From an uncultured beta proteobacterium (GTDB lineage: Bacteria > Pseudomonadota > Gammaproteobacteria > Burkholderiales > Usitatibacteraceae), in contig CAWGOH010000008.1 of the NCBI GenBank assembly GCA_963824135.1, positions 22 to 64,021 on the forward strand: 64,000 nt of DNA, in the 5' to 3' direction. Shown piece after piece: positions 1 through 63,179 of the stretch (position 1 is its first letter; each line of letters starts with the position of its first letter). The translations under genes were made by a program, and so were the position numbers. Below the pieces are notes generated by a model. The model was not told where the DNA came from. It saw nothing but the letters and a program-made list of their open reading frames with translations, and did not search any database.

Positions 1-27
1 GGTGGCATGGACGGCATGGACATGTAA
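1..27 (+). CDS. groL: 3' terminus (8 codons plus TAA) of a gene upstream of the window; Gly/Met-rich tail typical of chaperonin GroEL
   Basis: Frame 1 reads GGMDGMDM-stop. GGM-type repeats at the extreme C-terminus are a GroEL hallmark. Only 8 codons are visible. Confidence 0.4.
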   Translation, partial: GGMDGMDM

Positions 28-39
28 TTTCCTCTCCCT

Positions 40-61
40 CCCCTCTCCCTTGGGAGAGGGG
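40..61. repeat. REP-like intergenic palindrome CCCCTCTCCC-tt-GGGAGAGGGG, followed by GCCGGGGGTGAGGGTG
   Basis: Perfect 10-bp inverted repeat read directly. Elements of the CCTCTCCC/GGGAGAGG..GGTGAGGG type are common between genes in GC-rich proteobacteria. Confidence 0.4.
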
Positions 62-87
62 CCGGGGGTGAGGGTGCAGCATCACGG

Positions 88-118
88 AAAGGCCCGCCTC
101 GGCGGGCCTTTTCATTTT
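88..118 (+). terminator. Rho-independent terminator, probably for the upstream plus-strand gene; it abuts the stop of the minus-strand peptidase gene
   Basis: AAAGGCCCGC-ctcg-GCGGGCCTTT stem-loop followed by TCATTTT. Confidence 0.6.
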
Positions 119-7222: not shown

Positions 7223-7601
7223 ATGGTCGGCGAACGGGAGATCTACGGCGGGCTGATCCGGCTGCACGTGCTGCACCACGCCTGCCCATGAGCCGATCTT
7301 CGGGCAGGGGATCATGGACGAGCTCGCGCACCACGGCTACCGGCTGAGCCCGGGCACGATGTACCCGATCCTGCACGGGCTGGAGAAGGGCGGGTACCTG
7401 AAGTCGGCGGTCGAGAAGGACGGCAAGCGCAGCCGGCGCACCTACGTGGCCACCGCGGCGGGAAGGAAGGCGCTGCGAGCGGCCAAGGGAAGGGTCTGGG
7501 AGCTGTTCAGGGAGCTGTTCGAGGAAGAGCTGTCGAGCGGGTTGCAGGGTGGCGGGATGCGGGACCGGAAGATCACGAAGACAAAGGGAGACGGGCAATG
7601 A
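7223..7601 (+). CDS. PadR-family transcriptional regulator (one frame break near 7290)
   Basis: MVGEREIYGGLIRLHVLHHA is in one frame; EPIFGQGIMDELAHHGYRLSPGTMYPILHGLEKGGYL..RRTYVATAAGRKAL is in the next. This is the canonical PadR winged-helix signature. Confidence 0.75.
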
Positions 7602-35122: not shown

Positions 35123-37825
35123 ATGAAGAACGGAAGAAGGCCCCTCGCCGCGGCGGTCGCGCGTGCGCTGGGCGTGGCGTGCGCGGTCGCCGCGGCCGGC
35201 CAGGCCGTGGCGCAGGACGCGGCGCAGAAGGTCGAGAAGATCGAGGTCACCGGCTCCAACATCAAGCGCATCGAGGGCGAAGGCTCGCTCCCGGTGACGG
35301 TGATCACCCGCGACGACATCGAGCGCTCCGGCGCCACGACGCCCATGGAGCTGCTCAAGTTCGTGAGCGCCAACAACAGCCTGGGCGACGTCTCGCTCGC
35401 GAACGTGATCGGCTCGGCCACCTTCTCCGCGCAGACGGCGTCGCTGCGCGGCCTGGGCGGCGGGCGCACGCTCGTCCTCGTGAACGGCAAGCGCATCGAC
35501 GGCTTCGCGGGCGAGGTGCAGGGCGTGCAGGGGGTGAACCTCGCGGCCATTCCCTTCTCGGCCATCCAGCGGGTCGAGGTGCTCAAGGACGGCGCCTCGG
35601 CCATCTACGGCTCGGACGCGATCGGCGGCGTGATCAACTTCATCATGCGCTCCGACTACCGCGGCGGGGAGGCGATGGCCTGGTACGGCAGCCCCACGCG
35701 GGCCGGGGGCGGCGAGCAGCTGCGCGCGAGCGGCACCGCCGGCTTCGGCGACCTCTCGAGCGACGGCCACAACGTGGTGTTCTCGCTCTCCTACGACAAG
35801 CAGAAGAGCCTCGACCAGCGCGACCGCAACTTCTCCAACACCTCCTACCGGCCCGAGCTGGGGCTGGTGGCGATCTCCAGCAACAGCTTCCCGGGCCGGA
35901 TCACGACGGGCGGCATCGGCGTGCCCGGTACGCCGGACAACTGCGCGCCCACGACCTACTTCGCCGACCTCGAGGGCTGCTACTACGATCCTTCCGCGAT
36001 CGAGGGCGTGCAGATGGTCCCCGACAACGAGAAGTGGAACTTCTTCGGCTCGGCGCGCTTCCAGCTGAACGCCGACACCCAGGCGTACGCGACGGTGCTC
36101 GCCTCGCGCGACGAGAACCGCTACGTGATCCAGTCGGTGCCGATCTCGAACCTCTTCAACTACGGCCCCAACGGGGACATCCCGGCGACCGTCACCGTGA
36201 GCCCGTCGAGCCCCTTCTACCCCACGGCGCTCGCGCAGGCCGCGGGAGTCGCGGGACAGGTGCTCAACGTGCGCTACCGGGCGGTGGAAAACGGGCTTCG
36301 CGACTCCACCGACACGAACGAGAACGGGCAGGTGGTCGCCGGGCTCAAGGGGGCGTGGAAGGGCTTCGACTGGGATGCCGCCGCGTTCTACAGCCGGGGC
36401 ACGACGAAGAACCACCTGAACGGGGGCTTCCCGCTCTACACGCAGCTGCTCCCGCTGCTCAACGGCGGCACCGTGAACCTCTTCGCGCCCAACACGCCGG
36501 AGGTCGTCGCGCAGCTCCAGGCCACGAACTACGTGGGCGACACCTTCAACGGGACCTCGAAGAACGGCGGCGTGCAGGCCCTGGCCTCCGGGGAGATCGC
36601 GAAGCTCCCGGCCGGGGCCCTCGCGGTGGCCTTCGGCGTCGAGGCGAGGCGCGAGTCCCTGGACCAGGTGCCCGAGCCCGTGCTCGCCACGGGCGACCTC
36701 TCCGGGTTCGGCGGCAACATCCTGCCGGTGCACGTCTCGCGCGACATCCGCGCGGTGTTCGCCGAGATGGTCGTGCCGGTCGCCAAGGGGTTCGAGGCGA
36801 CGCTGGCGCTGCGCAGCGACCATTACAGCGACTTCGGCCGCACGACCAACCCGAAGGCGAGCTTCCGCTGGGAGCCGGACAAGCGGCTGCTGTTCCGCGC
36901 CTCCTACGGGGAAGGCTTCCTCGCCCCTTCGCTCTACCAGCTCTTCACGCCCAACATCTCCGGCGTGACGGCCACGGGGCAATCGGACCCGGTCCGCTGC
37001 CCGGTCACCCAGGACACCGGGCTCGACTGCGAAACGCAGTTCGCGGTCACCTTCGGCGGCAACGCGCAGCTCAAGCCCGAGGAGAGCAAGCAGTGGAGCC
37101 TGGGGTTCGTCACCGAGCCCTTCGCGGGCGCTTCCCTGGGCGTGGACTACTTCAACCTGCGCCTGGACGACGCGATCACCAACGGGATCCCCTACGCCAC
37201 GATCCTGGGCGACCTGGCGCAGTACGGCCACCTCGTCACGCGCGGCGCCCCGGACCCCGCGTTCCCCGGCCTGCCGGGCCGGATCATCGACATCGACCAG
37301 ACCTACATCAACCTGGGTTCGCTGAAGATCGAGGGGATCGACCTCGACTTCCACTACGTGGCGCGCGCGGCCTCGTGGGGAAGCCTGCGCTTCGACCTGG
37401 CGGGCACCTACTACATCCGCTACGACGCCCAGAACTCCGACGGGACCTACTCCGGCTTCGTCTCGAACCAGTACGGCGCGGTCATCACCGGCATCATCCC
37501 CCGGTGGAAGCACTACGCGTCCGTGACCTGGGCGAACGGCCCGTGGTCGGCCACGCTGGGGAACCTCTACCAGTCGAGCTACGTGGACGCGGGGACCGAC
37601 GGCGAGGACAACCTGCGCCGGGTGAGCTCGATGAGCCTGTGGGACGCGCAGGTGGCCTACAAGGGCTGGCGCAACCTCACCCTCACGCTCGGGGTGAAGA
37701 ACGCCTTCGACACCGACCCGCCCCAGTCCAACCAGGGCAACTCCTTCCAGGTGGGCTTCGACCCCTCCTACTACGACTCGCGGGCCCGGTTCGTCTACGG
37801 CAGCGTCGCCTACACGTTCAAATAG
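35123..37825 (+). CDS. TonB-dependent outer-membrane receptor
   Basis: Intact 900-aa ORF. Signal peptide, plug motifs (IEVTGSNIKR, LRGLGGGRTLVLVNGKR, VEVLKDGASAIYGSDAIGGVINF) and a beta-barrel with a C-terminal ..YGSVAYTFK. Confidence 0.9.
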   Translation: MKNGRRPLAAAVARALGVACAVAAAGQAVAQDAAQKVEKIEVTGSNIKRIEGEGSLPVTVITRDDIERSGATTPMELLKFVSANNSLGDVSLANVIGSATFSAQTASLRGLGGGRTLVLVNGKRIDGFAGEVQGVQGVNLAAIPFSAIQRVEVLKDGASAIYGSDAIGGVINFIMRSDYRGGEAMAWYGSPTRAGGGEQLRASGTAGFGDLSSDGHNVVFSLSYDKQKSLDQRDRNFSNTSYRPELGLVAISSNSFPGRITTGGIGVPGTPDNCAPTTYFADLEGCYYDPSAIEGVQMVPDNEKWNFFGSARFQLNADTQAYATVLASRDENRYVIQSVPISNLFNYGPNGDIPATVTVSPSSPFYPTALAQAAGVAGQVLNVRYRAVENGLRDSTDTNENGQVVAGLKGAWKGFDWDAAAFYSRGTTKNHLNGGFPLYTQLLPLLNGGTVNLFAPNTPEVVAQLQATNYVGDTFNGTSKNGGVQALASGEIAKLPAGALAVAFGVEARRESLDQVPEPVLATGDLSGFGGNILPVHVSRDIRAVFAEMVVPVAKGFEATLALRSDHYSDFGRTTNPKASFRWEPDKRLLFRASYGEGFLAPSLYQLFTPNISGVTATGQSDPVRCPVTQDTGLDCETQFAVTFGGNAQLKPEESKQWSLGFVTEPFAGASLGVDYFNLRLDDAITNGIPYATILGDLAQYGHLVTRGAPDPAFPGLPGRIIDIDQTYINLGSLKIEGIDLDFHYVARAASWGSLRFDLAGTYYIRYDAQNSDGTYSGFVSNQYGAVITGIIPRWKHYASVTWANGPWSATLGNLYQSSYVDAGTDGEDNLRRVSSMSLWDAQVAYKGWRNLTLTLGVKNAFDTDPPQSNQGNSFQVGFDPSYYDSRARFVYGSVAYTFK

Positions 37826-37883
37826 GCGGCTGGCGAGGGGGACGCGAAAACGCTATAATTTCGAGCTTTCCGCGTCACCCCTC

Positions 37884-37959
<76 letters not shown>

Positions 37960-37969
37960 AATTCCCCTG

Positions 37970-37997
37970 AAAGCCCGCTTTCCGAGCGGGCTTTTTC
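37970..37997 (+). terminator. Rho-independent terminator after tRNA-Phe
   Basis: AAAGCCCGC-tttccga-GCGGGCTTT followed by TTC. Confidence 0.6.
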
Positions 37998-38150
37998 TTG
38001 GCCGCGGGCTTCTTCCAATGGCGGGCGGCCCGGGCCTTCGCAAGTTGATCCTCGCGAAGCCGCAATGAGATAATCGGCGACTTCTCCGAACGCATCCCTC
38101 CCGATCGCCCCTCCCCCCGAACGTCCCTCCCGAAGGAAGGCCTCCCGCCC

Positions 38151-39532
38151 ATGACCACCCCCATCGACCTGCTGAAAATCGCCCAGGAAGAGCAAAGCGG
38201 CGACCTGTTCAAGCTGCTCGACTCGATCTACAAGCGCTCCGCCGTGAGGCCCGCGGGCTACCCCGACGCCATCATCTGGGAGGGCGGCAACGCCGCGGGC
38301 GGCGTGAAGCCGGTGGCCCACGCCTTCACCGACATGTTCGCGCTCAACGGGACCCTCATGGCCCTGGACGTGCTGGGCCTGCCCTTCCTCGGCGTGCCGA
38401 TGATGGCCCAGTTCCGCCACGACACGAAGCTCGTCTCGCTGGAGTGGTTCGGCAAGCTCGACTACACCGCGCTCAAGTGGTCCACGGCCGGCGACTTCAT
38501 GGTGAACGACGGCGGCAGGAAGGTCGTGGTGGCCGGCAAGTCCGCCAACGCGCCGCTGCGCACGGCCGCGGGCGTCTACTGCAACGTCCGGCCCTACGGC
38601 GGCATCACCAACGTGCGCTTCATGCCGGGCCTGCCCTATTCGCAGGACAACAGGAAGTTCCGGGTCGATCCGGAAACCGGCAACGTCCACTCCGAGATGA
38701 ACACGCCCGGCGTGCGCATGGCGTACGCGGCGCGGCTCTTCCTGCAGATGGTGCACGAGACCGGGCCACATCGGCCGCGTCGCCACGAAGCCGACGCAGG
38801 CGAAGGAGGACGCGGTCAATGCCGGCCTCTTCCGGTGGCTCCTCCAGGGCACGAAATTCCAGCTGAAGCGCCGCTACACCGTCGACGCCTACGAGGAGCA
38901 CCGCAAGAACGTCGACGCCATCGTCGCCCTGCTGCCCAAGGACTTCAAGGCGGGCATGGAGAACTGGGGCGGCGAGGTCTACGAGCACATCTCGGACACC
39001 AACTTCGGCATCATGCTGCACGACATGATCCGGCAGCGGCCGTGCATCGTCTATTCCACGGACCTGGACGGCGACCGCCTGACCGACCTCATGGCCGATG
39101 CGGCCGACGTGCTGCGGGACTGGGGCCAGATCGTGCTGGACAGGGTCGGCGCCAAGGTCGACATGAAGAAGCTCTGGAAGGACATGGGCTTCACCATGAC
39201 CAACGGCAAGGACATGACCAGCGTCATGTACCGCATCCACGGCGAGCCGATCTACGAGCAGACCCTGGGCTCGGCCGACGCGATGCTGCTCCGGCTCCTC
39301 GACGGCGACGAGACCGTGGGCGGCGAGAAGCAGCCCTACGACCCGCGCATCCACTTCGTGCTGATCAACGAGGCGTACAAGGCGGCCAACCCCGGGCAAC
39401 GCGAAGCTCGCCGCCTGGCTGGACGCGCAGCTCGCGATCTTCGATTCCATCTACGGCGCCAAGCGCCCGCGCTACATCGACGGGTACAAGCAGCTCAAGG
39501 CGGCGATCAAGCCCTGGGGGAGCGCGGCCTGA
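38151..39532 (+). CDS. Hypothetical cytoplasmic protein of about 460 aa, no family recognised (two frame breaks near 38765 and 39400)
   Basis: Coding-like composition in three consecutive frames (MTTPIDLLKIAQEEQ.. / HIGRVATKPTQAKEDAVNAGLF..ENWGGEVYEHISDTNFGIMLHD.. / NAKLAAWLDAQLAIFDSIYGAKRP..-stop). GAAGGAAGG lies before the ATG. No signal peptide. Confidence 0.6.
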
Positions 39533-39595
39533 TCCAAAGCAGCAGCGGCAACAAGCGCCGATCGGCGCGATAACTACAACTACAGGAGGATCTCC

Positions 39596-40571
39596 ATGAG
39601 TCTCGCCAAGTGCAGGCACGCAGTGGGTTTGATCGCATCGGCAGCCATGCTGGCGGCCATGCCGGTTTCCGCGCAGAAGTACCCGGACAGGACGATCACC
39701 ATGATCGTCCCCTTCGGCGCCGGCGGCTCCACCGACATCGTCGGCCGCATCGCCGCTGAAGCCATGTCCAGGTCCCTGGGCGTTTCCGTGATCGTGGAGA
39801 ACCGGGGCGGCGCCGGCGGCACGGTCGGCACGCAGGCGGCGGCCAACGCGGCGCCCGACGGCTACACGATCACGATGGCGACGACGAGCACCCACGTCGT
39901 GGGCCCGCTCACCGTCGAGACGGTCAAGTACGACCCGGTCAAGGACTTCGAGCCCGTCGGCATGATCGCGGAGACGCCGTACGTCCTGGTGGTGAGCCCC
40001 AAGCTCGCCGTGAATTCGGTCAAGGAACTGATCGACTACGCGAAGAAGAACCCGGGCAAGCTCAACTACGGCTCCGCCGGACAGGGCTCCACCACGCACC
40101 TGGCGGGCCTCATGTTCCTGGACGCGACGGGCACGAAGATGGAGCACGTCCCGTACAAGAGCAACGCCGACTCGACCAAGGCGGTGATGACCGACGAGGT
40201 GCAGGTGCTCTTCGGCTCCATGCCGGCGGTGCTCGCGCAGATCAAGGCGGGCACCATCAAGGCCCTGGCGGTCGGCTCCACGGTCCGCTCGCCCGAGCTG
40301 CCCGACGTGATGACCATGCAGGATGCCGGCGTCCCCGGCTATCGCGCGACCCTCTGGCTGGGCCTTTCGGCGCCCGCCAGGACCCCCGCCAGCGTGATCG
40401 ACCCGCCTGAGCGCGGCGCTGGACCAGGCCCTGGCGGAACCGGCGGTGGCCAAGCGCCTTTCGGCCGCCGGCGCGGAGCCCTCGAAGATGACTCCCGCCG
40501 AGTTCGGCAAGCTGATCTCCAGCGAAATGGGCGTGTACGGCAAGATCGTGGCCGGGATGAAGAAGAAGTGA
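39596..40571 (+). CDS. Bug-family (TctC-like) substrate-binding protein (one frame break near 40395)
   Basis: Signal peptide plus YPDRTITMIVPFGAGGSTDIVGR..ENRGGAGGTVG..PDGYTITM..NYGSAGQGSTTHLAG..VPYKS. The C-terminus MTPAEFGKLISSEMGVYGKIV is in the next frame. Confidence 0.8.
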
Positions 40572-41266
40572 CCGCTTCCAGCGCCGGTTTCGTCTTCCAG
40601 CCCGTCGAGGCGCCCAGCCTTCCGGTGCGCGGCTCGGCGTTGCGGCTCCCCGTGAACCGCATCTACTGCATCGGCCGCAACTACGAGGCGCACGCGGTGG
40701 AAATGGGGCACGACCCCAGCAAGGAGCCGCCGTTCTTCTTCCAGAAGAACCCGGGCAACCTCCTGTGCGGCCGGGATTTTCCCTATCCCCCGGAGACCTC
40801 CGACGTCCATCACGAGATCGAGATGGTCGCCGCGCTCTCGAAGGGCGGGAAGAACATCGCCGTCGCCGACGCGCTCGGCCACGTCTTCGGCTACGGCGTG
40901 GGCCTGGACATGACCCGCCGCGACCTGCAGGGCGAGGCGAAGAAGCTCGGCCGCCCCTGGGAGGTCGGCAAGGCGTTCGAGCACTCCGCGCCCTGCAGCG
41001 AGATCGTCCCGGCGAGCGAGATCGGCCACCCGGACCACGGCGCCATCTGGCTCAAGGTCAACGGGGAGGTCCGCCAGAAGGGCGACCTCAACCAGATGAT
41101 CTGGAAGACGGCCGAGCAGGTCGCGATCCTGTCCCGGTACTTCGAGCTCCAGCCCGGCGACGTCATCTTCACCGGGACGCCCTCGGGCGTGGGCCCCGTC
41201 AAGCGCGGCGACGAGATGGAGGGGTTCGTGGAGGGGGTCGGCAGCCTGCAACTGCGGGTCGTGTAG
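40568..41266 (+). CDS. Fumarylacetoacetate hydrolase (FAH) family protein (acylpyruvate/fumarylpyruvate hydrolase-like)
   Basis: Intact 232 aa. RIYCIGRNYEAHAVEMG, HHEIEMVAAL, GYGVGLDMTRRDLQ and PGDVIFTGTPSGVG are FAH-fold motifs. The GTG start overlaps the Bug gene stop (GTGA). Confidence 0.85.
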   Translation: MTASSAGFVFQPVEAPSLPVRGSALRLPVNRIYCIGRNYEAHAVEMGHDPSKEPPFFFQKNPGNLLCGRDFPYPPETSDVHHEIEMVAALSKGGKNIAVADALGHVFGYGVGLDMTRRDLQGEAKKLGRPWEVGKAFEHSAPCSEIVPASEIGHPDHGAIWLKVNGEVRQKGDLNQMIWKTAEQVAILSRYFELQPGDVIFTGTPSGVGPVKRGDEMEGFVEGVGSLQLRVV

Positions 41267-41428
41267 GCCCGCGCCCCGGGAACGCGCGAAGCCCGCCCCG
41301 CCCGGGCTTGCGTGCGGGCCCCGGGTTGGCCTAAGCTCCCCCGGCAAGAAGTGCGCACAGGGTCCTAGGGACCCCGCGAGGGCCGTAGCCGTCGCAAGCA
41401 ACAACGAGAGCCTGGGAGGGTTTACAAG

Positions 41429-42280
41429 ATGAGCTCAAGCAAGTACGGCAGCAAACTCGACACGCAGATCGACGATTATCTCCTCGCCGCCAGCGGGCAC
41501 CTGAAGGAGACCACGAAGCCGGCCGCCGGCCGGGGCGCGGTGGCCTTCGGCGCCGCCGCGAGCTCCGCGCTCGCCATGATGTCCCAGGCCGAGGCGGCCG
41601 TCGTGGTGAACGGCGGGTCGCCTCTTCCGGTCACGGTCTTCAACGGGGCCGGAACCACCTCGATCAGCGGGGACATGATGGGGCGGCGGCTCGATGTGGA
41701 CGGCAACGGAGTCTTCGATTTCGCCATCTGGGGCTACTCCACGCAAGGGAACGTCGGCATGGCCGCGGGCAACGTCAACGCGTCCATGATCGGTGGCGGC
41801 AGCGACGACCTGCTGAAGCTCTCCGCCGGCGCGACGATCGGGCCCGCCCGGCCCGCGACTTCCTGGACCCAGAGCGTGATGGGCACGGGGAACGATATCG
41901 CGTTCAGTGTCGGGAACGGCGCCAACAACTGGTCCGGCGGGGTGGGGGAGTTCGGCTTCGTCGGGGTCCGGTTCGACAACGCCTCCGGCACCCACTACGG
42001 CTGGGTATGCCTGCGTTCCGACCCCTCGGTCCCCAGCCAGATCACGGCCGTGGCATACGCCTTCGAGTCCGTCGCCGACACGATGATCCTGGCGGGCGAT
42101 ATCGGGTCCGGCGGGCCCAGGGCCTGCGATGCGGCTCTCGGCGCCTTGGGCGGCGCCAACGCGGTTCCCGCCATCGGGCCGGTTGCCTACGGACTGACGG
42201 CCCTGGCGCTCGGCGCCCTCGGGATGGGCGGCCTGCGCCGCCGCCGCGAAGGTCTGAAGCCCGTCAACACGGCGCACTGA
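41429..42280 (+). CDS. Secreted protein with a PEP-CTERM-like (V-P-x-x-x-P variant) C-terminal sorting signal
   Basis: Intact 283 aa. N-terminal signal-like AVAFGAAASSALAMMSQAEA, core motif GFVGVRFDNASGTHYGWVCL, and C-terminus VPAIGP + VAYGLTALALGALGMGGL + RRRRE. GGGAGGG lies 8 nt before the ATG. Confidence 0.65.
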   Translation: MSSSKYGSKLDTQIDDYLLAASGHLKETTKPAAGRGAVAFGAAASSALAMMSQAEAAVVVNGGSPLPVTVFNGAGTTSISGDMMGRRLDVDGNGVFDFAIWGYSTQGNVGMAAGNVNASMIGGGSDDLLKLSAGATIGPARPATSWTQSVMGTGNDIAFSVGNGANNWSGGVGEFGFVGVRFDNASGTHYGWVCLRSDPSVPSQITAVAYAFESVADTMILAGDIGSGGPRACDAALGALGGANAVPAIGPVAYGLTALALGALGMGGLRRRREGLKPVNTAH

Positions 42281-42302
42281 CCCCCAGGGGGCCGCCGGAT
42301 CG

Positions 42303-42336
42303 AATGCCCCAGGCCCGCGCCTGGGGCATTTTCGTT
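42303..42336 (+). terminator. Strong intrinsic terminator/attenuator between the sorted-protein gene and the sulfotransferase gene
   Basis: Perfect 12-bp stem AATGCCCCAGGC-ccgc-GCCTGGGGCATT followed by TTCGTT. Confidence 0.65.
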
Positions 42337-42367
42337 CCGGTGCCCGGATTCCGCCTCGAGGCCTTCG

Positions 42368-45325
42368 ATGAACCCAGACACTCCGAAGCGCAAGGTCCTT
42401 CTCATCGGCTGGGATGCCGCCGACTGGAAGATCATGACGCCCCTGATGGAGCAGGGGCACATGCCCAACCTCGCGCGCCTCGTGGAGCGCGGCGTCATGG
42501 GCAACCTGGCGACCTTGCATCCCGTGCTCTCGCCCATGCTCTGGACGAGCATCGCGACGGGCAAGCGCCCGTTCAAGCACGGCATCCTCGGCTTCACGGA
42601 GCCGACTCCCGACGGGGGGGCGGTCCAGCCGGTCAGCCAGCTCTCGCGCACGACCAAGGCCATCTGGAACATCCTGAACCAATCGGGATACCGGAGCGGG
42701 GTGGTGGGCTGGTGGCCCAGCCATCCGGTCGAGGCCATCAACGGCTCCATGGTCTCGAACCACTTTCACCATGCCGTGGGCCCGCCGGACCAGCCGTGGC
42801 CGCTGCCTTCCGGAGCGGTGCATCCGGAACGCGTGTCGGAAGCCCTGGCGGAGCTGCGCTTCAACCCGAACGAGCTCGTCCCGGAAGAGGTGCTGCCCTT
42901 CGTCCCCAGGGCGCTGGAGATCGACCAGGGGAAGGACCGCCGGCTGGCCTCGGTGATGAAGATCCTGGCCGAGTGCATCACGATGAACAACGCGGCGACC
43001 TGGCTCATGCAGAACGAGCCCTGGGACTTCTTCGCGGTGTACTTCGACGCCATCGACCACTTCTGCCACGCCTTCATGCGCTATCACCCGCCGCGCCAGG
43101 ACTGGATCGGCGAGCGCGACTTCGAGCTCTACTCGGGCGTGGTCAATGCCGGCTACCGGTTCCACGACATGATGCTGGGCGCGCAGCTCAGCCTCGTGGA
43201 CGAGGACACGACGGTGATCATGTGCTCGGACCACGGATTCCATCCCGACCACATGCGGCCGCGCCAGATTCCCAAGGAACCGGCCGGCCCCGCGGTGGAG
43301 CACCGGGACCTGGGCATGCTGGTGATCGCCGGTCCCGGCATCAGGAAGGACGAGCTGATCCACGGGGCGACGCTGCTCGACGTCACGCCGACGATCCTCG
43401 CGCTGCTGGGGCTGCCGGTAGGCGAGGACATGGACGGCAAGCCGCTTCTCCAGGCGTTCGAGACGCCGCCTGAGGTGACTCGCGTTCCGAGCTGGGACGC
43501 CATCTCCGGCGACGACGGGCGCCACTCCGTGACCCTGCGGCAGGACCCGCTCGCCGCCAAGGCGGCGCTCGACCAGCTCGTGGCGCTGGGCTATGTCGAG
43601 GCCCAGGGCGAGGACCAGGCCGACGCGGTCTCCCGCTGCGTGGCGGAGATGCGCTACAACCTGGCGCGCTCTTACATGGACGCCGACCTGCATCCCCAGG
43701 CGATCCCGATCCTCACGGAACTGGGCGAGTCCTACCCGGAGGAAATCCGCTTCGGCACGCAGCTCGCCCTGTGCCTGCGCGCCGTCGGCGATACGCCGGG
43801 CCTGCGCCTGCTGGTCGAGAAGATGCGGCAGTCGCGCTCGGTCATGGCCCGGCGCGCGCAGGAGAAGCTGGCGGAGATTCGCGGGACGCTCAAGGAGCGC
43901 CTCGCGGCGCGCAAGTCGGGACGGGAGAAAGCCGTTGCGGAAGGCGGCCCCGCGCCGAAGGCCGCGACGGGCGAGGAGGAGGACCGGCTGCTCTCGCCGA
44001 AGGAGCGCGAGGAGCTCGATCGCTGGCGCTACGTGAGGAACACCACCACCTACGACCTCGACTTCCTCATGAGCTGCGTCCTTCTCGACGAGGACAATCC
44101 GGAGGAGGCGCTGGCCTACCTGGCGAAGGCGGGCGAGGCCCAGCCCGACCGCCCGGGCCTGCACATCCAGGTCGGCGAGGCCTACCTCAAGCTGCGAAGG
44201 GCGCCGGAGGCCGAGGAGTCGTACCGGAAGGCGCTCGCCATCGACCCGCTGAATTTCCACGCCCACCTGGGGGTGGCGCGCGCGAGCCTGCGCCAGCGCC
44301 GCTACGAGGAGGCCGCGGCGCAGGCGCTGGAGACGGTGCGGCTCATGTTCCACTATCCGATGGCTCACTTCGTCCTCGGCAACGCGCTGTTCCGGCTCCG
44401 CCGCATCGACGCGGCCGAGCGCTCGCTCAATCTCGCCCTCGAGCTCAACCCGAATTTCATCGAGGCGCACCGGATGCTGATGTCGCTCTACCGGTTCTGG
44501 AAGCCGGACCCCGTCGCCTTGAGAAAGCACCGCAAGGCCGTGGCGGAGCTGCGCCGCATGAATCTCAGGGGCAAGGAAGCGGGGCTCGCGGCGATGGCGG
44601 CGGAGTTCGCCGAGGCGCCCACGGGCGAGCATGACGAGCCGGGACTGTTGCCGGACGGGGCGCAGGCGCCCGAGCCGGAAGGGTCGGCCGGAATCAGTCG
44701 CCTGCCGGACGACGGGGCGCCCGCCGACTTCGTCACCGTGGTGGCGGGCCTGCCGCGCTCCGGGACCTCGATGCTCATGCAGATGCTCGATGCGGGCGGA
44801 ATGCGGATCTTCACCGACCGCAAGCGCGAGGCCGACGAGGACAATCCGAGGGGCTATTTCGAGACCGAGAAGGCCACCCAGCTGCGCAAGAACCGGGACT
44901 GGGTCCGCGAGGCGACGAACATGGGCGTCAAGATCGTGGCCCAGCTGCTGCCCTACATGCCCCGGGAGGTGCCCGTCCGCGTCGTCTTCATCGAGCGCGA
45001 TCTCGACGAGGTCCTGGCCTCGCAGAAGACGATGCTCGAAAGAAGGAAGCGGCCCGACGGCAAGTTCGCGGACGAGCAGATCAGGGCCGCGTTCTCCCGC
45101 CAGCTGACGATCGTCAAGCGCTGGCTGGCCCGCAACCCCAATGCCTGGACGCTGTACGTCCAGCACCGCGATGTCGTCCGCGATCCCCGTGCCGCCGCGA
45201 CGGCGATCAGCGAGTTCCTCGGCGGCCGCCTGGACGTGGAAGCGATGGTCCGGGCGGTCGATCCCTCCCTGTACCGGCAGCGCGCGCGGGCGGATGCCCG
45301 CGGCGGCATGGCCGTACCCTCCTGA
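42368..45325 (+). CDS. Three-module protein: alkaline-phosphatase-superfamily (type I phosphodiesterase/NPP-like) domain, TPR repeats, C-terminal sulfotransferase domain
   Basis: Intact 985 aa. N-terminus KVLLIGWDAADWKIM..LSPMLWTSIATGK..SDHGFHPDHM (AlkP/NPP-like). Middle has TPR-like helices (YNLARSYMD.., AYLKLRRAPEAEESYRKALAIDP). C-terminus VVAGLPRSGTSMLMQML (PAPS 5'-phosphosulfate loop) and VVFIERDLDEVLAS. Confidence 0.8.
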   Translation: MNPDTPKRKVLLIGWDAADWKIMTPLMEQGHMPNLARLVERGVMGNLATLHPVLSPMLWTSIATGKRPFKHGILGFTEPTPDGGAVQPVSQLSRTTKAIWNILNQSGYRSGVVGWWPSHPVEAINGSMVSNHFHHAVGPPDQPWPLPSGAVHPERVSEALAELRFNPNELVPEEVLPFVPRALEIDQGKDRRLASVMKILAECITMNNAATWLMQNEPWDFFAVYFDAIDHFCHAFMRYHPPRQDWIGERDFELYSGVVNAGYRFHDMMLGAQLSLVDEDTTVIMCSDHGFHPDHMRPRQIPKEPAGPAVEHRDLGMLVIAGPGIRKDELIHGATLLDVTPTILALLGLPVGEDMDGKPLLQAFETPPEVTRVPSWDAISGDDGRHSVTLRQDPLAAKAALDQLVALGYVEAQGEDQADAVSRCVAEMRYNLARSYMDADLHPQAIPILTELGESYPEEIRFGTQLALCLRAVGDTPGLRLLVEKMRQSRSVMARRAQEKLAEIRGTLKERLAARKSGREKAVAEGGPAPKAATGEEEDRLLSPKEREELDRWRYVRNTTTYDLDFLMSCVLLDEDNPEEALAYLAKAGEAQPDRPGLHIQVGEAYLKLRRAPEAEESYRKALAIDPLNFHAHLGVARASLRQRRYEEAAAQALETVRLMFHYPMAHFVLGNALFRLRRIDAAERSLNLALELNPNFIEAHRMLMSLYRFWKPDPVALRKHRKAVAELRRMNLRGKEAGLAAMAAEFAEAPTGEHDEPGLLPDGAQAPEPEGSAGISRLPDDGAPADFVTVVAGLPRSGTSMLMQMLDAGGMRIFTDRKREADEDNPRGYFETEKATQLRKNRDWVREATNMGVKIVAQLLPYMPREVPVRVVFIERDLDEVLASQKTMLERRKRPDGKFADEQIRAAFSRQLTIVKRWLARNPNAWTLYVQHRDVVRDPRAAATAISEFLGGRLDVEAMVRAVDPSLYRQRARADARGGMAVPS

Positions 45326-45335
45326 AAGGCCTGTC

Positions 45336-45875
45336 GTGAGAAAGCTCCTCCTGCTCGTCCTGGTCGCCGCGGGCCTCGCCGCCGTGGCGGCCGACAAGAC
45401 CGCCCCCGCTCCGAAGTCCGTTTCGCCGTCCCCGGCCGAAAAGGGCTGGAAGGCGATCCGCTGCCTCGGGGACGACGACGGCAACGGAAAGCTCTCGCGC
45501 GACGAGGTCGCCAGGATCGATCCCGCGCCCGTCCGGGTGTTGAGCAGGCAGTTCGACGCGATCGACGCGAACCGCGACGGCGTGATCACCTTCGAGGAAT
45601 TCCGCGACCATACCCAGGGAATCCGCGACAAGTGGGAGGCGTCCTTCCGCGAGGCGGACACGGACCGCAGCGGCGGGCTTTCCAAGGCGGAGCTGGCGAA
45701 GTCCCAGGACGGGAGCTTCGGCCAGATCAAGGCGCGCTTCGAGCAGATGGACGCCGACAAGGACGGACAGGTCACCCTGCAGGAGCGGGACCGGTACCTG
45801 AAATCGGCCGGCGAGGATGCGAGGCGCCGACGCCTCGAACCCAAGGCCGATCCCGCCCGGAAGGCGCAGCCGTAG
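45336..45875 (+). CDS. Secreted calcium-binding protein with four EF-hand loops
   Basis: GTG start 10 nt after the upstream stop. Signal peptide [16 protein letters not shown]. Loops [36 protein letters not shown] and [12 protein letters not shown]. Confidence 0.8.
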
Positions 45876-45877
45876 AA

Positions 45878-47322
45878 CCGCGCATCGTCGCGGTCGGGGG
45901 CGAGGGCGGGTCGGCCTCCATCGGCCGGATCCTGCTCGAGTCGGGGCGCCGCGATTTCGTCGTCGAGGACTTCGATCGCCGCGACCCCGGGGCCGGCGGC
46001 ATGGCGGCGGCGTGGAGGGCGGACATCGCCATCGTCGTGATCGAAGCTCCCGAAGGATTGCGGGAGCGGGCGCGGCGGGACCTCTACCTGGCATCGCTGC
46101 TGCGCATCCCGCGCATCGTGCTCGCGGTCGACCGGATGGACCGGGTGGGCTATGCGCAGGACGCCTTCCGCCGGATCGAAACGGACTGCGGTGCCTTCGC
46201 ATCCCGGATCGGCCTCGCGCGTTTCGCGTGCGTCCCGATCAGCTCCGCCCGCGGCGACAACGTCGCCTCGCCGCAGGGCAATACCCCGTGGTACGAGGGA
46301 CCGACGCTTCTGGGGCACCTGGATTCGGCGCCCGTCGACGATCCGGCGGCCACCGTGCCGGTCGCGGGCGATCCCGTCACCGTCGCGGACCAGTTCGAGG
46401 CCACCGTCGTCTGGATGGGCGGGGAGCCGCTGCTGCGCGGCCGCGAGTACCTGCTGGAGATCGGCGGCAGGACCGTCGCCGCCACCGTCGCGCCGCATCA
46501 AGTACCGGATCGACGTGGACACGCAGGAGCGTCTGGCCGCCGAACAGGCTCGAGCGGGACGAGATCGGCGTGTGCGAGCTGGAGCTCGGCCAGCCGATCG
46601 CATTCGAGCCTCACGCCGTCAACCGCGAACGGGGCCGCTTCGTCCTGCTCGACGGGATCACGCGCGTGGCGGTGGGCGCCGGCGTGCTCCACTTCGCCCT
46701 GAGGCGCTCGCAGAACGTCCATTGGCAATCGGTCGACATCGACCGCCGCGCGCGCGCCTCGCTCAAGGGCCAGCGGCCGGTCGTGGTGTGGTTCACGGGC
46801 CTGTCGGGCGCGGGCAAGTCGACCATCGCCAACCTGGTGGAGAAGAAGCTGCACGCGCTCGGCCGGCACACCTACCTGCTGGACGGCGACAACGTGAGGC
46901 ACGGTCTCAACAAGGACCTGGGCTTCACCGCCGAGGACCGGGTGGAGAACATCCGGCGGGTGGCCGAGGTGGCCGCGCTGATGGCCGACGCGGGCCTGGT
47001 GGTGCTGGCGGCCTTCATCTCGCCTTTCCGCAGCGAACGCCGCATGGCGCGGGCCTTGCTGCCCGAGGGCGAGTTCGTCGAGGTGTTCATCGACACGCCG
47101 CTGGAAGTGGCGGAGGCCCGCGACGCGAAGGGGCTGTACCGGAAGGCTCGTCGCGGCGAGCTCGCGAACTTCACCGGAATCGACTCGCCGTACGAGCGCC
47201 CCGAGGCCGCGGAGATCACGATCCCGGGAGCCCTTTGCGGGCCCGAGGAGGCCGCGGAGCGGATCGTCGCGGAACTGCAGCGCCGGGGCGTCACCCGCGC
47301 CGCGATCGGCCGGGAGGCGTAG
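45878..47322 (+). CDS. cysC: Degenerate, shortened CysN-like domain fused to adenylylsulfate (APS) kinase; two frame breaks near 46495 and 46545; N-terminal boundary uncertain
   Basis: C-terminal half [46 protein letters not shown] is canonical CysC. The N-terminal half aligns to CysN ([41 protein letters not shown]-like RVAVGAG) but has GGEGGSAS in place of the GxxxxGKS P-loop. No start codon occurs after the EF-hand stop. Confidence 0.75.
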
Positions 47323-47326
47323 GCGG

Positions 47327-48082
47327 GTGGATCCGGCGCTCCTCGAGGAGGTGATCGCCCTTGCCCGGGCCGCGGGCGAGGCCATCCTGGGCGTCTACGC
47401 CACGGACTTCGCCGTGCGCGAGAAGGCGGATGCGTCCCCCGTGACGATGGCCGACGAAATGGCGGAGGCGGTGATCCTCCGGGGACTGGCGTCGCTCGCG
47501 CCCGCGATCCCCGTGGTCTCGGAGGAGGCGGCATCCGCCGGGCGGGCGCCCGCGGTCGGGCAGGCATTCTGGCTTGTCGATCCCCTCGACGGGACGAAGG
47601 AGTTCGCCAGCCGCAACGGCGAGTTCACCGTCAACATCGCTCTCGTCGAGAACGGCCTGCCGGTCCTCGCCGTGGTGCACGCCCCGGCGCTCGCGCGCCT
47701 CTATGCGGGCCTCGAAGGAGGCGGCGCGAAGGCCGAGGACGCGAGCGGCAGCAGGCCGATCCGCGCGCGTGCGATTCCCGGGGAGGGAATGACCGTCGTC
47801 TCCAGCCGTTCCCACGGCGACGCCGAGGCGCTGGCGCGCCACCTGGCCGGCCGCAAGGTGGCCGCTTCGGCGCGCGCGGGATCCTCGCTCAAGTTCTGTC
47901 TCGTGGCCGAGGGGAAGGCGGACCTCTATCCCCGCTTCGGACGCACGATGGAATGGGACACGGCCGCCGGTCACGGGGTGCTGCGCGCGGCGGGCGGGCG
48001 GGTGGTCGACCTCGAGGGCCGCGAACTGCGGTACGGCAAGCCCGGCTTCGCCAATCCCCACTTCCTCGCCTTCGGCGCCTGA
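47327..48082 (+). CDS. cysQ: 3'(2'),5'-bisphosphate nucleotidase (PAP phosphatase)
   Basis: Intact 251 aa. KADASPVTMAD, WLVDPLDGTKEF and MEWDTAAGHGVL are inositol-monophosphatase-fold/CysQ motifs. GTG start 4 nt after the upstream stop. Confidence 0.85.
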   Translation: MDPALLEEVIALARAAGEAILGVYATDFAVREKADASPVTMADEMAEAVILRGLASLAPAIPVVSEEAASAGRAPAVGQAFWLVDPLDGTKEFASRNGEFTVNIALVENGLPVLAVVHAPALARLYAGLEGGGAKAEDASGSRPIRARAIPGEGMTVVSSRSHGDAEALARHLAGRKVAASARAGSSLKFCLVAEGKADLYPRFGRTMEWDTAAGHGVLRAAGGRVVDLEGRELRYGKPGFANPHFLAFGA

Positions 48083-48120
48083 TCCGCGGCCCGCCGGAGC
48101 AGGCAACGAGCGGGCGCGGT

Positions 48121-49770
48121 TCAGCGTTCGCGCGCGTCCAGCACCTCGAAGCGCGCCGCCACCCAGCCGCGGCCCGAAACCTGGTCCCGGCTGAAGCGGA
48201 TCGTGTAGGTGTAGGGGCCCAGGGTCATCTCGAAGGATCCCCTCGCCTCGAACGTGGCGCGGGAGACGAGCAGGGCGTCGAGCTGCCCTCCCGGGTCGCC
48301 CCCGGGCACGAACAGCGCGTCGACCTTCGCGAGCGCCCTGGACATTCCCGGCGTGTCGGCGAAGAGCGCGACGCGGGCCGGGTCGTCCGCCAGCGCCCGA
48401 ATTCCGATGCGCACGCGGTTCGTCGCCGGGTCCGCGAAGACGCGGACGACGCGGCCGACGCGGATGCGATCGCCTTCGCGCACGCCCAGCAGGTCGCCCG
48501 TCGAAACGTCGACGTCGCCGTTTCGCGGGATCGAGATGCCCATCCCGCGCGCGGACCGGTCGATGACGGTGCAGCGCTTGCCGAGGGGCTCCATGACCAT
48601 GCCGTACGACTCGCTGCGGTCGGAACGCGCGCTGCCCCGGGCGTCCGGCTGCGTCGGGGTGCCCGGATCGGGAACGGTGGCATCGTCGACGGCCGGCCCG
48701 AAGCCGCGCGCCAGGATTTCGCCCAGCCCGACGAGCAGCGGAACGCCTGCCCCGTCCGCGGCCCGCGCCCGCTTCTCGCGCGCGGCGGCGGGATTTGCCC
48801 AGAATGCGAGCAGCTCCTCGAGCCGGCCGAGCGCGGAGACGTGGTGCTCGACGGGAAGGCTGGCCGCGAACCGCGTCCCGGAAACCAGGCGCCCCGCGTG
48901 GAAGGCGCTCCGGATCCCGTCGATGCGCCCGCGCAGCCCCTCGAGGCCGCCGACGTATCGCGTGGCCGCGCCCGGCGAGCGGCCGCACGGCTCGAGGCCT
49001 CCCGAGCCGTGGATGCCGATGGCGACGGGACAATGCCCGGCGGTCGGCTCGGCGAGGACGCGGAAGTCCCTGCACCACAGCAGGAGCCAGCCGTCGGCGA
49101 TCTCCATCTCGGGACGCGACAGGGGGCCGATGCACAGGGCCTCGAACAGGAGGGCTCGCAGGTAGAGCGACTCGGGCGTCGCCTCGAAGGGCAGGCCGTC
49201 GACCGTGACGGTCGCCGGCGCCCTCGCGACGCCTGCCGCTTCCGCCATCCGGTAGGCCTCGTGCAGCGCCTGCAGGTCGCGGGCGCCCCGGCCGGCGATG
49301 GCGCTCCACTTGAGGGCCTCGCCCAGGCTCGCCATGGCGCTCGCCAGCAGCCGGGTCAGCACGGGGTTTTCCGCGCCGAAGGCCGCGAGCTCGATCTTCG
49401 CGAATCCCATCGCGGCTTCCGCCCAGCGCTCGCGCGCCCGGATCGCCCAGTCGGCGAACGCCTGGTCCTCGTCGCCCCACACGATCTCGTGCGCGAGCAC
49501 CGCCGAGGATTCCGTCGCGAAATGCCCGCCCACCGCCGCTTCGGCGTCGAGGAGCAGCGACGAGTCCAGGCTGCCGTGCGCGTCGGCGTGGCCGAGCGCA
49601 TCGAGCAGGTTGTCCAGTTCGTTCCGGAAACTCCTGCCGTGGGCCGTTGCGAGCCGGCGGGCGGCCGTCATGGCCGCTCCGGAAGCGGAGGTGGAGGGCA
49701 GGTGGGTCGGATACCTCATGACGCCCGCATTCCGGGCCGTCGCGAGATCGCGTGTCGTGGTGGATAGCAT
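48121..49770 (-). CDS. Hypothetical 549-aa protein with a C-terminal PilZ-like motif pair
   Basis: Intact ORF. Strong AGGAGG 7 nt before ATG 49770. RGSAR..(21 aa)..DRSARGMGI fits the PilZ RxxxR...(D/N)xSxxG spacing. The remainder is not recognisable. Confidence 0.55.
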   Translation of the reverse strand: MLSTTTRDLATARNAGVMRYPTHLPSTSASGAAMTAARRLATAHGRSFRNELDNLLDALGHADAHGSLDSSLLLDAEAAVGGHFATESSAVLAHEIVWGDEDQAFADWAIRARERWAEAAMGFAKIELAAFGAENPVLTRLLASAMASLGEALKWSAIAGRGARDLQALHEAYRMAEAAGVARAPATVTVDGLPFEATPESLYLRALLFEALCIGPLSRPEMEIADGWLLLWCRDFRVLAEPTAGHCPVAIGIHGSGGLEPCGRSPGAATRYVGGLEGLRGRIDGIRSAFHAGRLVSGTRFAASLPVEHHVSALGRLEELLAFWANPAAAREKRARAADGAGVPLLVGLGEILARGFGPAVDDATVPDPGTPTQPDARGSARSDRSESYGMVMEPLGKRCTVIDRSARGMGISIPRNGDVDVSTGDLLGVREGDRIRVGRVVRVFADPATNRVRIGIRALADDPARVALFADTPGMSRALAKVDALFVPGGDPGGQLDALLVSRATFEARGSFEMTLGPYTYTIRFSRDQVSGRGWVAARFEVLDARER

Positions 49771-49814
49771 CGTCGTCCCTCCTGTTCGTCGCCCGGGCTC
49801 GGCTCGCAGCCCGT

Positions 49815-50240
49815 TCAGTGCCGGAAGTCCGCGCGTCCCGCCGCCGACGTGAAGTGGCGGTGGATCTCCCCGGCGTAGAGCCGGGCGGGGGAGGATGCCG
49901 GGCTGGCCGCGTCGCCGGGCACTTCCCACGGCGATTGCCGGAACGCGGTCACGTCGGGGTGGACGCCGATCGCCAGGCGCACGAGTTCGCGCGCCCGGTC
50001 GGAGCGCCCGTCCTCGACGTAGCAGCGGGCCGCATCCATCACGCGGTCGGCGTCGGCGAGGTCCGCGAGGCCGCGAACCACTCCGGGAAAGCGTGCCCGC
50101 AGGTAGGCCTCGCGGACGCGGTCGCCCTCCGGCACGGCGGTGGACGGCCGTGCAGTACGCAACCCGGTTTCCGGCAGGGGCGCGTCGAGGGGAACGAGTT
50201 CGAGCGCTGCGGCATTCCAGCGTGGTTCGTGGGCAGTCAT
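49815..50240 (-). CDS. Small hypothetical protein, paralogue A (TPR-like helix pair)
   Basis: VREAYLRARFPGVVRGLADLADADRVMDAARCYVEDGRSDRARELVRLAIGVHPD parallels paralogue B. The start at 50240 is supported by the same upstream motif spacing as paralogue B. Confidence 0.5.
   Translation of the reverse strand: MTAHEPRWNAAALELVPLDAPLPETGLRTARPSTAVPEGDRVREAYLRARFPGVVRGLADLADADRVMDAARCYVEDGRSDRARELVRLAIGVHPDVTAFRQSPWEVPGDAASPASSPARLYAGEIHRHFTSAAGRADFRH

Positions 50241-53081: not shown

Positions 53082-57204
<4,123 letters not shown>

Positions 57205-58844: not shown

Positions 58845-58848
<4 letters not shown>
57205..58848 (-). CDS. Membrane sensor without output domain: TM, periplasmic (Cache/CHASE-like by position) domain, TM, PAS, C-terminal coiled coil
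   Basis: Intact 547 aa. TM1 [21 protein letters not shown], about 270-aa extracytoplasmic segment, TM2 [24 protein letters not shown] ([15 protein letters not shown]..), then [24 protein letters not shown]. Both gene junctions are ATGA overlaps. Confidence 0.7.

Positions 58849-63179
<4,331 letters not shown>

Follow-up and report, generated by a model that had tools for sequence, protein, structure and literature searches.

Gene content of the locus

We examined a 64,000-nucleotide stretch of DNA from an uncultured betaproteobacterium (contig CAWGOH010000008.1; hereafter the window) and focused on a block of five co-directional genes at 41429-48082, all on the + strand. The block encodes a sorted surface protein (gene 1), a 985-aa protein that combines an alkaline phosphatase-like (AlkP) domain, a tetratricopeptide repeat (TPR) superhelix and a domain related to sulfotransferases that use 3'-phosphoadenosine 5'-phosphosulfate (PAPS) (gene 2, hereafter the enzyme), an EF-hand protein, a CysN remnant joined to an adenosine 5'-phosphosulfate (APS) kinase (gene 4), and CysQ, which acts on 3'-phosphoadenosine 5'-phosphate (PAP) (Table 1). 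The locus sits in a chromosome segment of ~70% GC, with no break in composition.

An earlier reading of the same DNA, made from the sequence alone (the original prediction), had described the block as a self-contained sulfation operon. Its five co-directional genes, its perfect 12-bp hairpin (42303-42330) and its quoted motifs PRSGTS and GLSGAGKST are all present. The gaps of 10 nt (between the enzyme and EF-hand genes) and 4 nt (before the CysQ gene) had been given correctly, but the gap between gene 1 and the enzyme gene measures 87 nt instead of 88 nt, and the gap of "about 2 nt" fell away, as there is no start codon beside the EF-hand stop.

Table 1. Features of the five-gene block, with positions in the window.
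Feature	Position	Residues	Strand	Evidence or remark
Sorted surface protein (gene 1), 283 aa	41429-42280		+	Open reading frame (ORF); no match in Pfam or NCBIfam
Terminator-like hairpin	42303-42336		+	AATGCCCCAGGC-CCGC-GCCTGGGGCATT, then TTCGTT
AlkP-TPR-sulfotransferase (gene 2, the enzyme), 985 aa	42368-45325		+	PF01663, TPRs, PF13469, PF00685; AlphaFold2 (AF2) model
AlkP/NPP-like domain	42389-43537	~8-390	+	Part of the 985-aa enzyme
Helical/TPR superhelix	43547-44611	~394-748	+	Part of the 985-aa enzyme
Minimal PAPS sulfotransferase domain (predicted)	44723-45283	~786-972	+	Part of the 985-aa enzyme
EF-hand protein, 179 aa, GTG start	45336-45875		+	Pfam EF-hand families, 3e-19; signal peptide
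CysN remnant-APS kinase (gene 4)	46001-47322		+	PF01583, 1.5e-68; frame analysis; +1 insertions at 46495 and 46545
CysQ, 3'(2'),5'-bisphosphate nucleotidase (PAP phosphatase), 251 aa	47327-48082		+	TIGR01331, PF00459

Domain architecture and family of the enzyme

The enzyme matched PF01663 (5e-27; 95.7 bits against a cutoff of 23), TPR families, PF13469 (3e-11; 44.4 bits against 27) and PF00685 (5e-7; 29.8 bits against 22). It shows no signal peptide and is, judged from its sequence, cytoplasmic. Structure prediction, which the original prediction had proposed, was run with AF2 and gave a confident full-length model (pLDDT 87.6, pTM 0.74); the C-terminal 208 residues modelled alone reached a pLDDT of 89.8.

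Foldseek searches with the C-terminal domain returned Teg12, Teg14 and StaL (~4e-6, best 3.8e-6), SULTs, CurM-ST and TPST as the leading PDB matches. The TMq values to sulfotransferases were 0.45-0.57 (0.55-0.57 for TPST), and a few unrelated entries appeared lower down. Both PAPS motifs are present, namely the 5'-phosphosulfate-binding (5'-PSB) loop P-[KR]-S-G-T-[TS] and the 3'-phosphate R…S motif with its two residues eight apart, and they align to PKSGTT and RNpkDvavS of SULT1. In profile comparisons the domain matched SULT1A3 (3.8e-5) over the 3'-phosphate region (R877…S885) and TPST1/2 over the 5'-PSB loop. Thirteen residues were invariant in 66 homologues: D16, S55, D227, H231, D288, H289, H312, R797, T800, S801, E832, R877 and S885. 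The whole PRSGTS motif (residues 796-801) was invariant together with R877 and S885, and the sulfotransferase domain contained no invariant His. By analogy with TPST and the heparan sulfate sulfotransferases (HS-ST), the invariant E832 may be the catalytic base. By hidden Markov model (HMM) matches, motifs and predicted fold, the C-terminal domain looks like a PAPS sulfotransferase that is presumably active; the assignment made in the original prediction stands, with sulfotransferase models matched and the PAPS-binding features in place.

The seven invariant residues from D16 to H312 make up the putative bimetal and nucleophile set of the AlkP domain, so that its active site looks intact. Foldseek neighbours of this domain were choline sulfatase, phosphonate monoester hydrolase (PMH) and a Xanthomonas NPP. 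In the nucleophile segment LSPMLWTSIATGKRPFKHGI, S55 aligns with 'SIATG', the Thr-nucleophile region of the phosphonoacetate hydrolase PhnA. Direct reading of the sequence found no sulfatase formylglycine motif (C/S-x-P-x-R), and therefore we consider the domain NPP/PhnA-like and not a sulfatase. The central region was closest to the TPR solenoids of OGT and SPINDLY (E 1e-8 to 1e-10).

The enzyme belongs to a very large family. A total of 7588 out of 8000 scored candidates matched, and the best 120 were mostly near full length (~920-1020 aa). The family was found in at least 586 species-representative genomes from about eight phyla, and the carriers include Betaproteobacteria, Gammaproteobacteria, 'Deltaproteobacteria', Planctomycetota, Verrucomicrobiota, Acidobacteriota and Nitrospirota. 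Cultured carriers include Zoogloea spp., Rubritalea spongiae KCTC 12906, Maioricimonas sp. JC845 and Thiohalocapsa halophila. Where the sources name it, its sole name is 'alkaline phosphatase family protein'.

Conservation of the gene neighbourhood

We searched the five products with tblastn against 80 genome loci plus L001-3. The CysN-remnant/CysC and CysQ genes were present only in the clade of the window (L001-3, L085-88), the EF-hand gene in this clade and in two betaproteobacterial metagenome-assembled genomes (MAGs; L004, L005), and the BLAST-detectable homologues of gene 1 had a slightly wider range than the EF-hand gene. The five-gene order was kept in eight independent contigs.

Unbiased clustering of 8307 flank ORFs gave one widely shared neighbour family, that of gene 1 (34 loci); besides it, the search for other conserved neighbours among these ORFs (glycosyltransferases, exosortase, transporters) recovered only small clade-specific genes. 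With a gene-1 HMM, a member of the family was detected in 54 out of 81 loci. Fifty-two matches lay within 2.5 kb upstream of the enzyme gene, on the same strand in 45 of the 68 loci with sufficient upstream sequence. The farther flank (721 kb) contained four matches, that is 0.0055 per kb against 0.178 per kb near the enzyme, a 32-fold enrichment. The reverse look-up started from members recovered by an independent library-wide profile search: P0312, P0339 and P0294 all adjoin an enzyme gene (3/3 informative cases), and the contig of a fourth (L093) was too short to be informative. Since the upstream enrichment and the reverse look-ups agree, the conserved unit is the pair of the sorted protein, which we named HYGW after a motif of its core, and the enzyme; the five-gene block is a local elaboration of that pair. 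The operon of the original prediction is therefore real here, but the block as a whole is kept in close relatives only, and it is the pair, which had gone unnoticed, that is linked across phyla.

Genes of PAPS metabolism were also found beside the enzyme gene outside the clade of the window. In Zoogloea, a stand-alone CysC gene overlaps the stop codon of the enzyme gene; CysC adjoins the enzyme gene in a Desulfuromonadales MAG (L038) and in L080, and a CysQ-like gene does so in an alphaproteobacterial MAG (L041). It looks as if such genes were recruited beside the enzyme repeatedly, in several lineages. Because APS kinase or CysQ-like genes adjoin the enzyme in several lineages, this gene content argues that the sulfotransferase domain actually consumes PAPS, with turnover rather than mere binding.

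The sorted HYGW surface protein

The gene 1 protein consists of an N-terminal segment, a signal peptide (…MMSQAEA|AV), the HYGW domain (DVDGNGVFDF … GFVGVRF…THYGWVCL … AYAFE) and a C-terminal sorting-like tail (VPAIGP, a transmembrane (TM) segment and RRRR). The N-terminal motif LDxQI(N/D)DYLLxASGHL is invariant in the clade of the window. No match to the protein was found in Pfam or NCBIfam. Its tail, which in the clade takes the unclassified form [VI]PxxxP-TM-RRRR, scored below threshold when searched in isolation (IPTL-CTERM, 15.2 against a cutoff of 20.5; MYXO-CTERM, 17.5 against 20). The PEP-CTERM models (TIGR02595, PF07589) did not match the window protein either, but the tripartite layout of the tail is visible in the sequence; more distant members of the family pass PF07589, PF18203 or PF18962. 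On inspection the tail ([VI]PxxxP) would also pass for VPXXXP-CTERM, yet that model did not match it.

The HYGW family comprised 8806 representatives at 50% identity (library-wide profile search, E <= 1e-3). It contains no Pfam domain, and the sequence/profile search against solved structures returned none. Its members share a signal peptide, a DxDGDGxxDF loop, a core (GF.GvrF…HYGWi.L…WAYE) and a sorting tail that depends on the taxon: most have PEP-CTERM, Nitrospirota and delta lineages have IPTL-CTERM, and a Flavobacteriales MAG has a type IX secretion system (T9SS) tail. The pair with the enzyme persists although the tail switches among these three types. Most members also have an unusually long conserved segment ahead of the signal-peptide core (L..L..Y(S/A)..A). 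Relatives of the window protein matched the model of the flocculation protein PepA (NF033554) weakly and below threshold (1.7e-7; 31 bits, cutoff 80). A universal acceptor Tyr was sought in the family and rejected: each candidate Tyr is replaced in one linked member or another, and thus no universal acceptor residue can be named.

Other observations concern the form and copy number of the family. The segment ahead of the signal peptide in gene 1 (residues 1-34; 41429-41530) carries a DYLLxASGHL motif that is invariant in 17/17 close homologues, and recalls the extended signal peptide regions of autotransporters, whose sequences are unrelated. Giant proteins of 1600-3500 aa contain the HYGW domain repeated in 4-5 tandem modules (giant or array cases: P0265, P0266, P0269; L006, L014, L046; QG662_1498-1501), and in some genomes two to four paralogous sorted-protein genes lie in tandem upstream of one enzyme gene.

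The hairpin and the EF-hand gene

The hairpin starts 22 nt after gene 1 and has a perfect 12-bp stem (42303-42314/42319-42330), with the loop CCGC and the T-rich tail TTCGTT. The fold reached -51 kcal/mol for the 101-nt context (z = -3.4), and 0/200 shuffles folded as well. A consensus terminator scan did not call it, its tail being too short for the rule of the scan. Hairpins of different sequence lie at the same position in L001, L004, L005, L006, L059, L085, L089 and L092, and inter-gene hairpins with U-runs and unrelated sequences recur in beta, gamma and planctomycete loci. The order of structural gene, hairpin and enzyme gene is what one would expect if the gene of an abundant structural or substrate protein preceded that of its catalytic partner. 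In some loci (L089, at 7405-7923; also L007, L008, L009 and L011) a gene for a 170-230-aa protein lies between the sorted-protein and enzyme genes. This protein has no Pfam match, is carried by Zoogloea (whose sorted-protein orthologue lies at L089 6432-7355) and by Hydrogenophilales and Methylococcales MAGs, and could be a third component restricted to certain clades.

Besides a signal peptide, the EF-hand protein contains four canonical 12-residue Ca2+ loops, with matches above the cutoffs to PF00036 (67.5 bits) and PF13499 (49.4 bits). Orthologues were found only in L001-L005 and L085-L088, and no EF-hand gene was found downstream of the enzyme in distant loci. The original prediction had this protein bind Ca2+ to the sulfated product; the idea is lineage-specific at best, since the gene is confined to few relatives. 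A DxDGDG loop is also carried by the partner sorted protein itself.

Genes for the sulfuryl donor

APS kinase makes PAPS, sulfotransferases yield PAP from it, and CysQ removes the inhibitory PAP. Genes for both supporting enzymes adjoin the sulfotransferase gene in the block, as originally described. CysQ scored 285.5 bits with the equivalog model TIGR01331 (cutoff 228.8) and 3.6e-52 with PF00459. The APS kinase domain of gene 4 (46774-47223) is fully conserved, with the Walker motif GLSGAGKST and 230 bits for PF01583 (frame-1 translation); the L001 orthologue scored 244 with TIGR00455 (cutoff 138.7).

The reading frame of gene 4 in the window is, however, not intact. Coding runs in frame 2 to 46495, in frame 3 to 46546 and then in frame 1; the GC content of third codon positions (GC3) shifts phase near 46440-46500, and tblastn with the intact 500-aa L001 orthologue was split over three frames at 46495/46497 and 46546/7. 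Nucleotide alignment placed two single-base insertions at 46495 and 46545. The original prediction had taken gene 4 as one intact ORF of 501 aa (45817-47322), of which the first ~240 codons are out of frame. The coding frame of gene 4 offers no ATG, GTG or TTG directly after the EF-hand stop. The first ATG, at 46001, is the exact start of the intact relative P0139 (the intact orthologues being P0138, P0139 and P0140), and the stretch 45877-46000 gives a CysN-remnant-like upstream reading with no start codon.

Gene 4 was 75% identical to full-length betaproteobacterial CysNC over the C-terminal two thirds. In the CysN remnant the G1 motif GSVDDGKST is lost, switch I and the whole of domain II are deleted, and G3 and G4 are degenerate (EDLEGR in place of DTPGH, DRMD in place of NKMD); its score with TIGR02034 (211.9 against a cutoff of 336.1) leaves it outside CysN. 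Gene 4 documents a degenerate CysN domain kept as an appendage of an APS kinase domain. An independently truncated CysN-CysC of 480 aa (P0225, L084 10001-11443), with the G1 P-loop kept and switch I and domain II absent, was found in a polysaccharide locus that also encodes glycosyltransferases and a Wzt ABC transporter. A shortened CysN attached to APS kinase may be a pattern that recurs.

The absence of CysD, noted originally, was confirmed, and neither Sat nor a second or full CysN is encoded in the 64-kb window. With no ATP sulfurylase there, the block cannot activate sulfate, and its APS has to come from elsewhere. Judged from its domains, the block can convert APS to PAPS and recycle PAP, but the "self-contained", "complete donor cycle" of the original prediction does not hold, the kinase gene also being frameshifted in this contig.

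Comparison with known systems

Tyrosine sulfation of the RaxX precursor in Xanthomonas oryzae depends on raxX-raxSTAB with raxPQ (PMC6637879, PMC4646787). The two systems are alike in that the gene of a cytoplasmic PAPS-dependent sulfotransferase (predicted in our case) lies beside the gene of a ribosomally made, exported substrate (here a candidate), the precursor has an N-terminal leader, genes for PAPS supply are needed, and the Arg-type 5'-PSB loop (PRSGT) is TPST-like. In contrast, RaxST is a single-domain protein, to which an AlkP/NPP domain and a TPR superhelix are added here. RaxX is a 60-aa ribosomally synthesized and post-translationally modified peptide (RiPP) exported by a peptidase-containing ABC transporter, whereas the HYGW proteins are Sec proteins of 240-310 aa with an exosortase-type or T9SS tail. 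The locus falls outside the RaxX/RaxST type: the partner is a 283-aa Sec/sorted protein, and no ABC transporter is found in the block or conserved in the 81 loci.

NodPQ/NodH of Sinorhizobium also places donor-supply genes beside a dedicated sulfotransferase, and NodQ, like the ancestor of gene 4, joins CysN to CysC. However, NodP (CysD) and the active NodQ GTPase make APS, whereas here CysD is absent and the CysN part degenerate; moreover, the acceptor of NodH is a lipochitooligosaccharide and CysQ is not in the nod cluster. OGT and SPINDLY, the best structural match to the central region, likewise have a TPR solenoid fused to a catalytic domain, to which it delivers polypeptide clients, and the similar architecture suggests a protein-directed enzyme. 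The catalytic domains are unrelated (GT41 versus AlkP and sulfotransferase), and the likeness is limited to the generic TPR fold.

In Aquincola, a stem-loop and the gene of a TPR protein come after pepA, whose product occurs in several processed or modified forms and increases bound exopolysaccharide (EPS) (PMC9850573). The pepA-prsT floc loci of Aquincola and Zoogloea share with our locus the succession of a PEP-CTERM structural gene, a stem-loop terminator and the gene of a large TPR protein; Zoogloea carries the present cassette, and relatives of the sorted protein match PepA weakly. PrsT differs in having neither the AlkP nor the sulfotransferase domain, the PrsT model scored 54 bits on the TPR region of the enzyme (cutoff 312), and neither an RpoN promoter nor PrsK/R was found in the window. 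StaL, Teg12 and Teg14 have the closest solved folds to the C-terminal domain and are small bacterial PAPS enzymes that act on phenolic hydroxyls of peptide scaffolds, but their identity to it is 15-19%, their His base is not conserved here, and they are stand-alone enzymes of antibiotic clusters.

We found no literature on an AlkP-TPR-sulfotransferase fusion or on its pairing with a sorted protein. The cassette belongs to none of RaxX/RaxST, NodPQ/NodH, OGT and pepA-prsT, in line with the remark in the original prediction that no described system matched, and its kind would be that of a dedicated sulfation module.

Proposed function and alternative explanations

We propose that a widespread two-gene cassette would modify a sorted surface protein in a PAPS-dependent manner, and that the five-gene block is a lineage-specific expansion of this cassette; we give this reading a probability of roughly 0.5. 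APS made elsewhere in the genome would be phosphorylated to PAPS by the APS kinase domain of gene 4, following established biochemistry, with the CysN part as a presumably dead scaffold. The sulfotransferase domain of the enzyme, with its fold and both PAPS motifs, would use this PAPS on the co-encoded surface-protein precursor or on a group attached to it, as the conserved adjacency suggests, probably in the cytoplasm ahead of export. The surface protein itself would be abundant, exported by Sec and C-terminally sorted. More speculatively, the TPR superhelix could grip the unfolded client in the manner of OGT and SPINDLY, possibly via the N-terminal leader, and the invariant bimetallo AlkP/NPP-like site could catalyse a second reaction, of phosphoryl or sulfuryl type, with the same client or the nucleotide as its substrate. 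CysQ would hydrolyse the inhibitory PAP, as is established for such enzymes, the terminator-like hairpin would set a high ratio of structural protein to enzyme, and the periplasmic four-EF-hand protein could be an accessory Ca2+ partner confined to the clade.

Several points weigh against this proposal. There is no direct evidence of a sulfated product, the role of the AlkP domain is left unexplained, and modification of a Sec substrate in the cytoplasm before its export would be unusual. About one third of the loci with sufficient upstream sequence show no partner nearby. Most loci lack the EF-hand, CysC and CysQ genes, which the enzyme family hence does not require, and the kinase gene of this contig carries frameshifts. 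The HYGW family has no universally conserved Tyr, Ser or Thr: the Tyr of the HYGW motif is replaced by Phe in some members, that of WAYE by Val, Phe or Trp in some, and one linked subgroup (L007, L046, L059, L064) lacks the N-terminal L..Y motif and has a Tyr-less N-terminal motif of its own.

The acceptor is the point at which the main rival departs. The enzyme could sulfate a non-protein acceptor (an exopolysaccharide or lipopolysaccharide (LPS) precursor, a glycolipid or a small molecule), and the HYGW protein could bind or organise the sulfated polymer at the surface, much as EPS is retained in flocs by PEP-CTERM proteins of the PepA type; we regard this as possible but doubtful. Most known bacterial gene clusters that have their own PAPS supply act in the sulfation of glycans or lipids (NodPQ/NodH, mycobacterial Stf), which favours such an acceptor, as do the missing invariant hydroxyl residue in the partner family, the polysaccharide locus around the truncated CysN-CysC of L084, and the weak, sub-threshold similarity of HYGW relatives to PepA (NF033554), a protein that raises bound EPS (PMC9850573). 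However, the sorted protein is the sole recurrent neighbour of the enzyme; genes for glycosyltransferases, polysaccharide export or lipids are not conserved near it. The layout of TPRs plus transferase is structurally closest to the protein-modifying OGT and SPINDLY, and the order of structural gene, hairpin and enzyme gene resembles substrate-then-enzyme operons. The original prediction had left the acceptor between the adjacent sorted protein and an envelope glycan; linkage far above chance favours the first of these as the probable acceptor.

A second alternative concerns this genome alone, and we consider it improbable: the donor branch could be decaying here, with the CysN-remnant/CysC gene a true pseudogene (two frameshifts and a lost start) and the PAPS cycle non-functional. 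The insertions at 46495 and 46545 are unique among six related sequences, being absent from L001 and from the JGI contigs L085-L088 (~96% nucleotide identity), against which they are the sole coding indels in gene 4; neither lies in a long homopolymer, and the N-terminal 21 codons and the ATG of L001 are missing. However, the intact relatives P0139 and P0140 also lack this ATG, with starts at 46001 or later, the kinase region downstream is 99% identical at the protein level to the intact P0140, and the codon-position GC bias is strong through all three frames. Furthermore, comparable single-base frameshifts occur within 3 kb in at least two unrelated, otherwise well conserved genes: in comparison with L001, the formamidase-like gene just upstream (38121-39526) has two, near 38800 and 39394, and in the TctC gene (39596-40565) one near 40350-40400 fuses TctC to a FAA-hydrolase ORF. 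An assembly indel error is therefore likelier than a strain-specific pseudogene, and the pattern suggests scattered single-base indel errors in the contig.

Finally, it is very improbable that catalysis lies chiefly with the AlkP/NPP-like domain, as a phosphodiesterase or phosphotransferase that acts on the client, with a sulfotransferase-like domain that merely binds PAPS, PAP or a nucleotide for regulation or performs non-sulfuryl chemistry, and with no sulfated product: the invariant AlkP metal and nucleophile residues, the minimal size of the sulfotransferase domain (~200 aa) with its moderate TM-scores (0.45-0.57) and lack of an invariant His, and the presence of retinol dehydratase (same fold, not a transferase) among the top Foldseek matches would fit it, but both PAPS-binding motifs are invariant, as is E832, which may correspond by motif comparison to the Glu base of TPST and heparan sulfate sulfotransferases, and several lineages have an APS kinase gene beside the enzyme, and two a CysQ-like gene.

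Returning to a sulfated surface protein, there is a realistic chance that the pair represents a widespread new protein-modification pathway. In its fullest form, a general and so far unrecognised route of leader docking, O-sulfation together with an AlkP-type modification, and then Sec export and exosortase or T9SS sorting, the idea is tentative. To our knowledge, protein sulfation in bacteria is known essentially from RaxX/RaxST alone; if the proposal is true, it would be common on the surfaces of Proteobacteria, Planctomycetota, Verrucomicrobiota, Acidobacteriota, Nitrospirota and others, and not a Xanthomonas curiosity. Substrates of PEP-CTERM/exosortase systems are abundant in environmental and wastewater bacteria, and little is known of their post-translational chemistry. 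The pair, which occurs in hundreds of species, offers a testable entry point to the modification of sorted surface proteins, with a bearing on flocculation, the biofilm matrix and Ca2+ bridging, and provides a working hypothesis for a very large family annotated only as 'alkaline phosphatase family protein'.

Other features of the window

A pattern search upstream of gene 1 (41267-41428) gave no sigma-54 promoter site, and the window-wide counts were not above those of shuffles. The scan of 41000-48600 for sigma-70 promoters and consensus terminators returned 0 sites, and no exosortase was detected among the scanned ORFs of the window. A tRNA-Phe (GAA) at 37884-37959, between a TonB-receptor gene and the formamidase-like gene, was the sole match of the Rfam scan of 37000-50000. 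Convergent to the CysQ gene lies a 602-aa ORF on the - strand (48121-49929), with good coding statistics and no match in Pfam or NCBIfam. It is kept in L085-L087 and replaced in L001 by a rubrerythrin-like gene, a swap that marks the downstream boundary of the five-gene block. Lastly, we detected a direct duplication of 1332 bp with 99.5% identity (53645-54976 and 59060-60391) within two hybrid PAS/histidine-kinase/receiver genes on the - strand (53082-56507 and 58845-61328), which could be a recent gene conversion or an assembly artefact.

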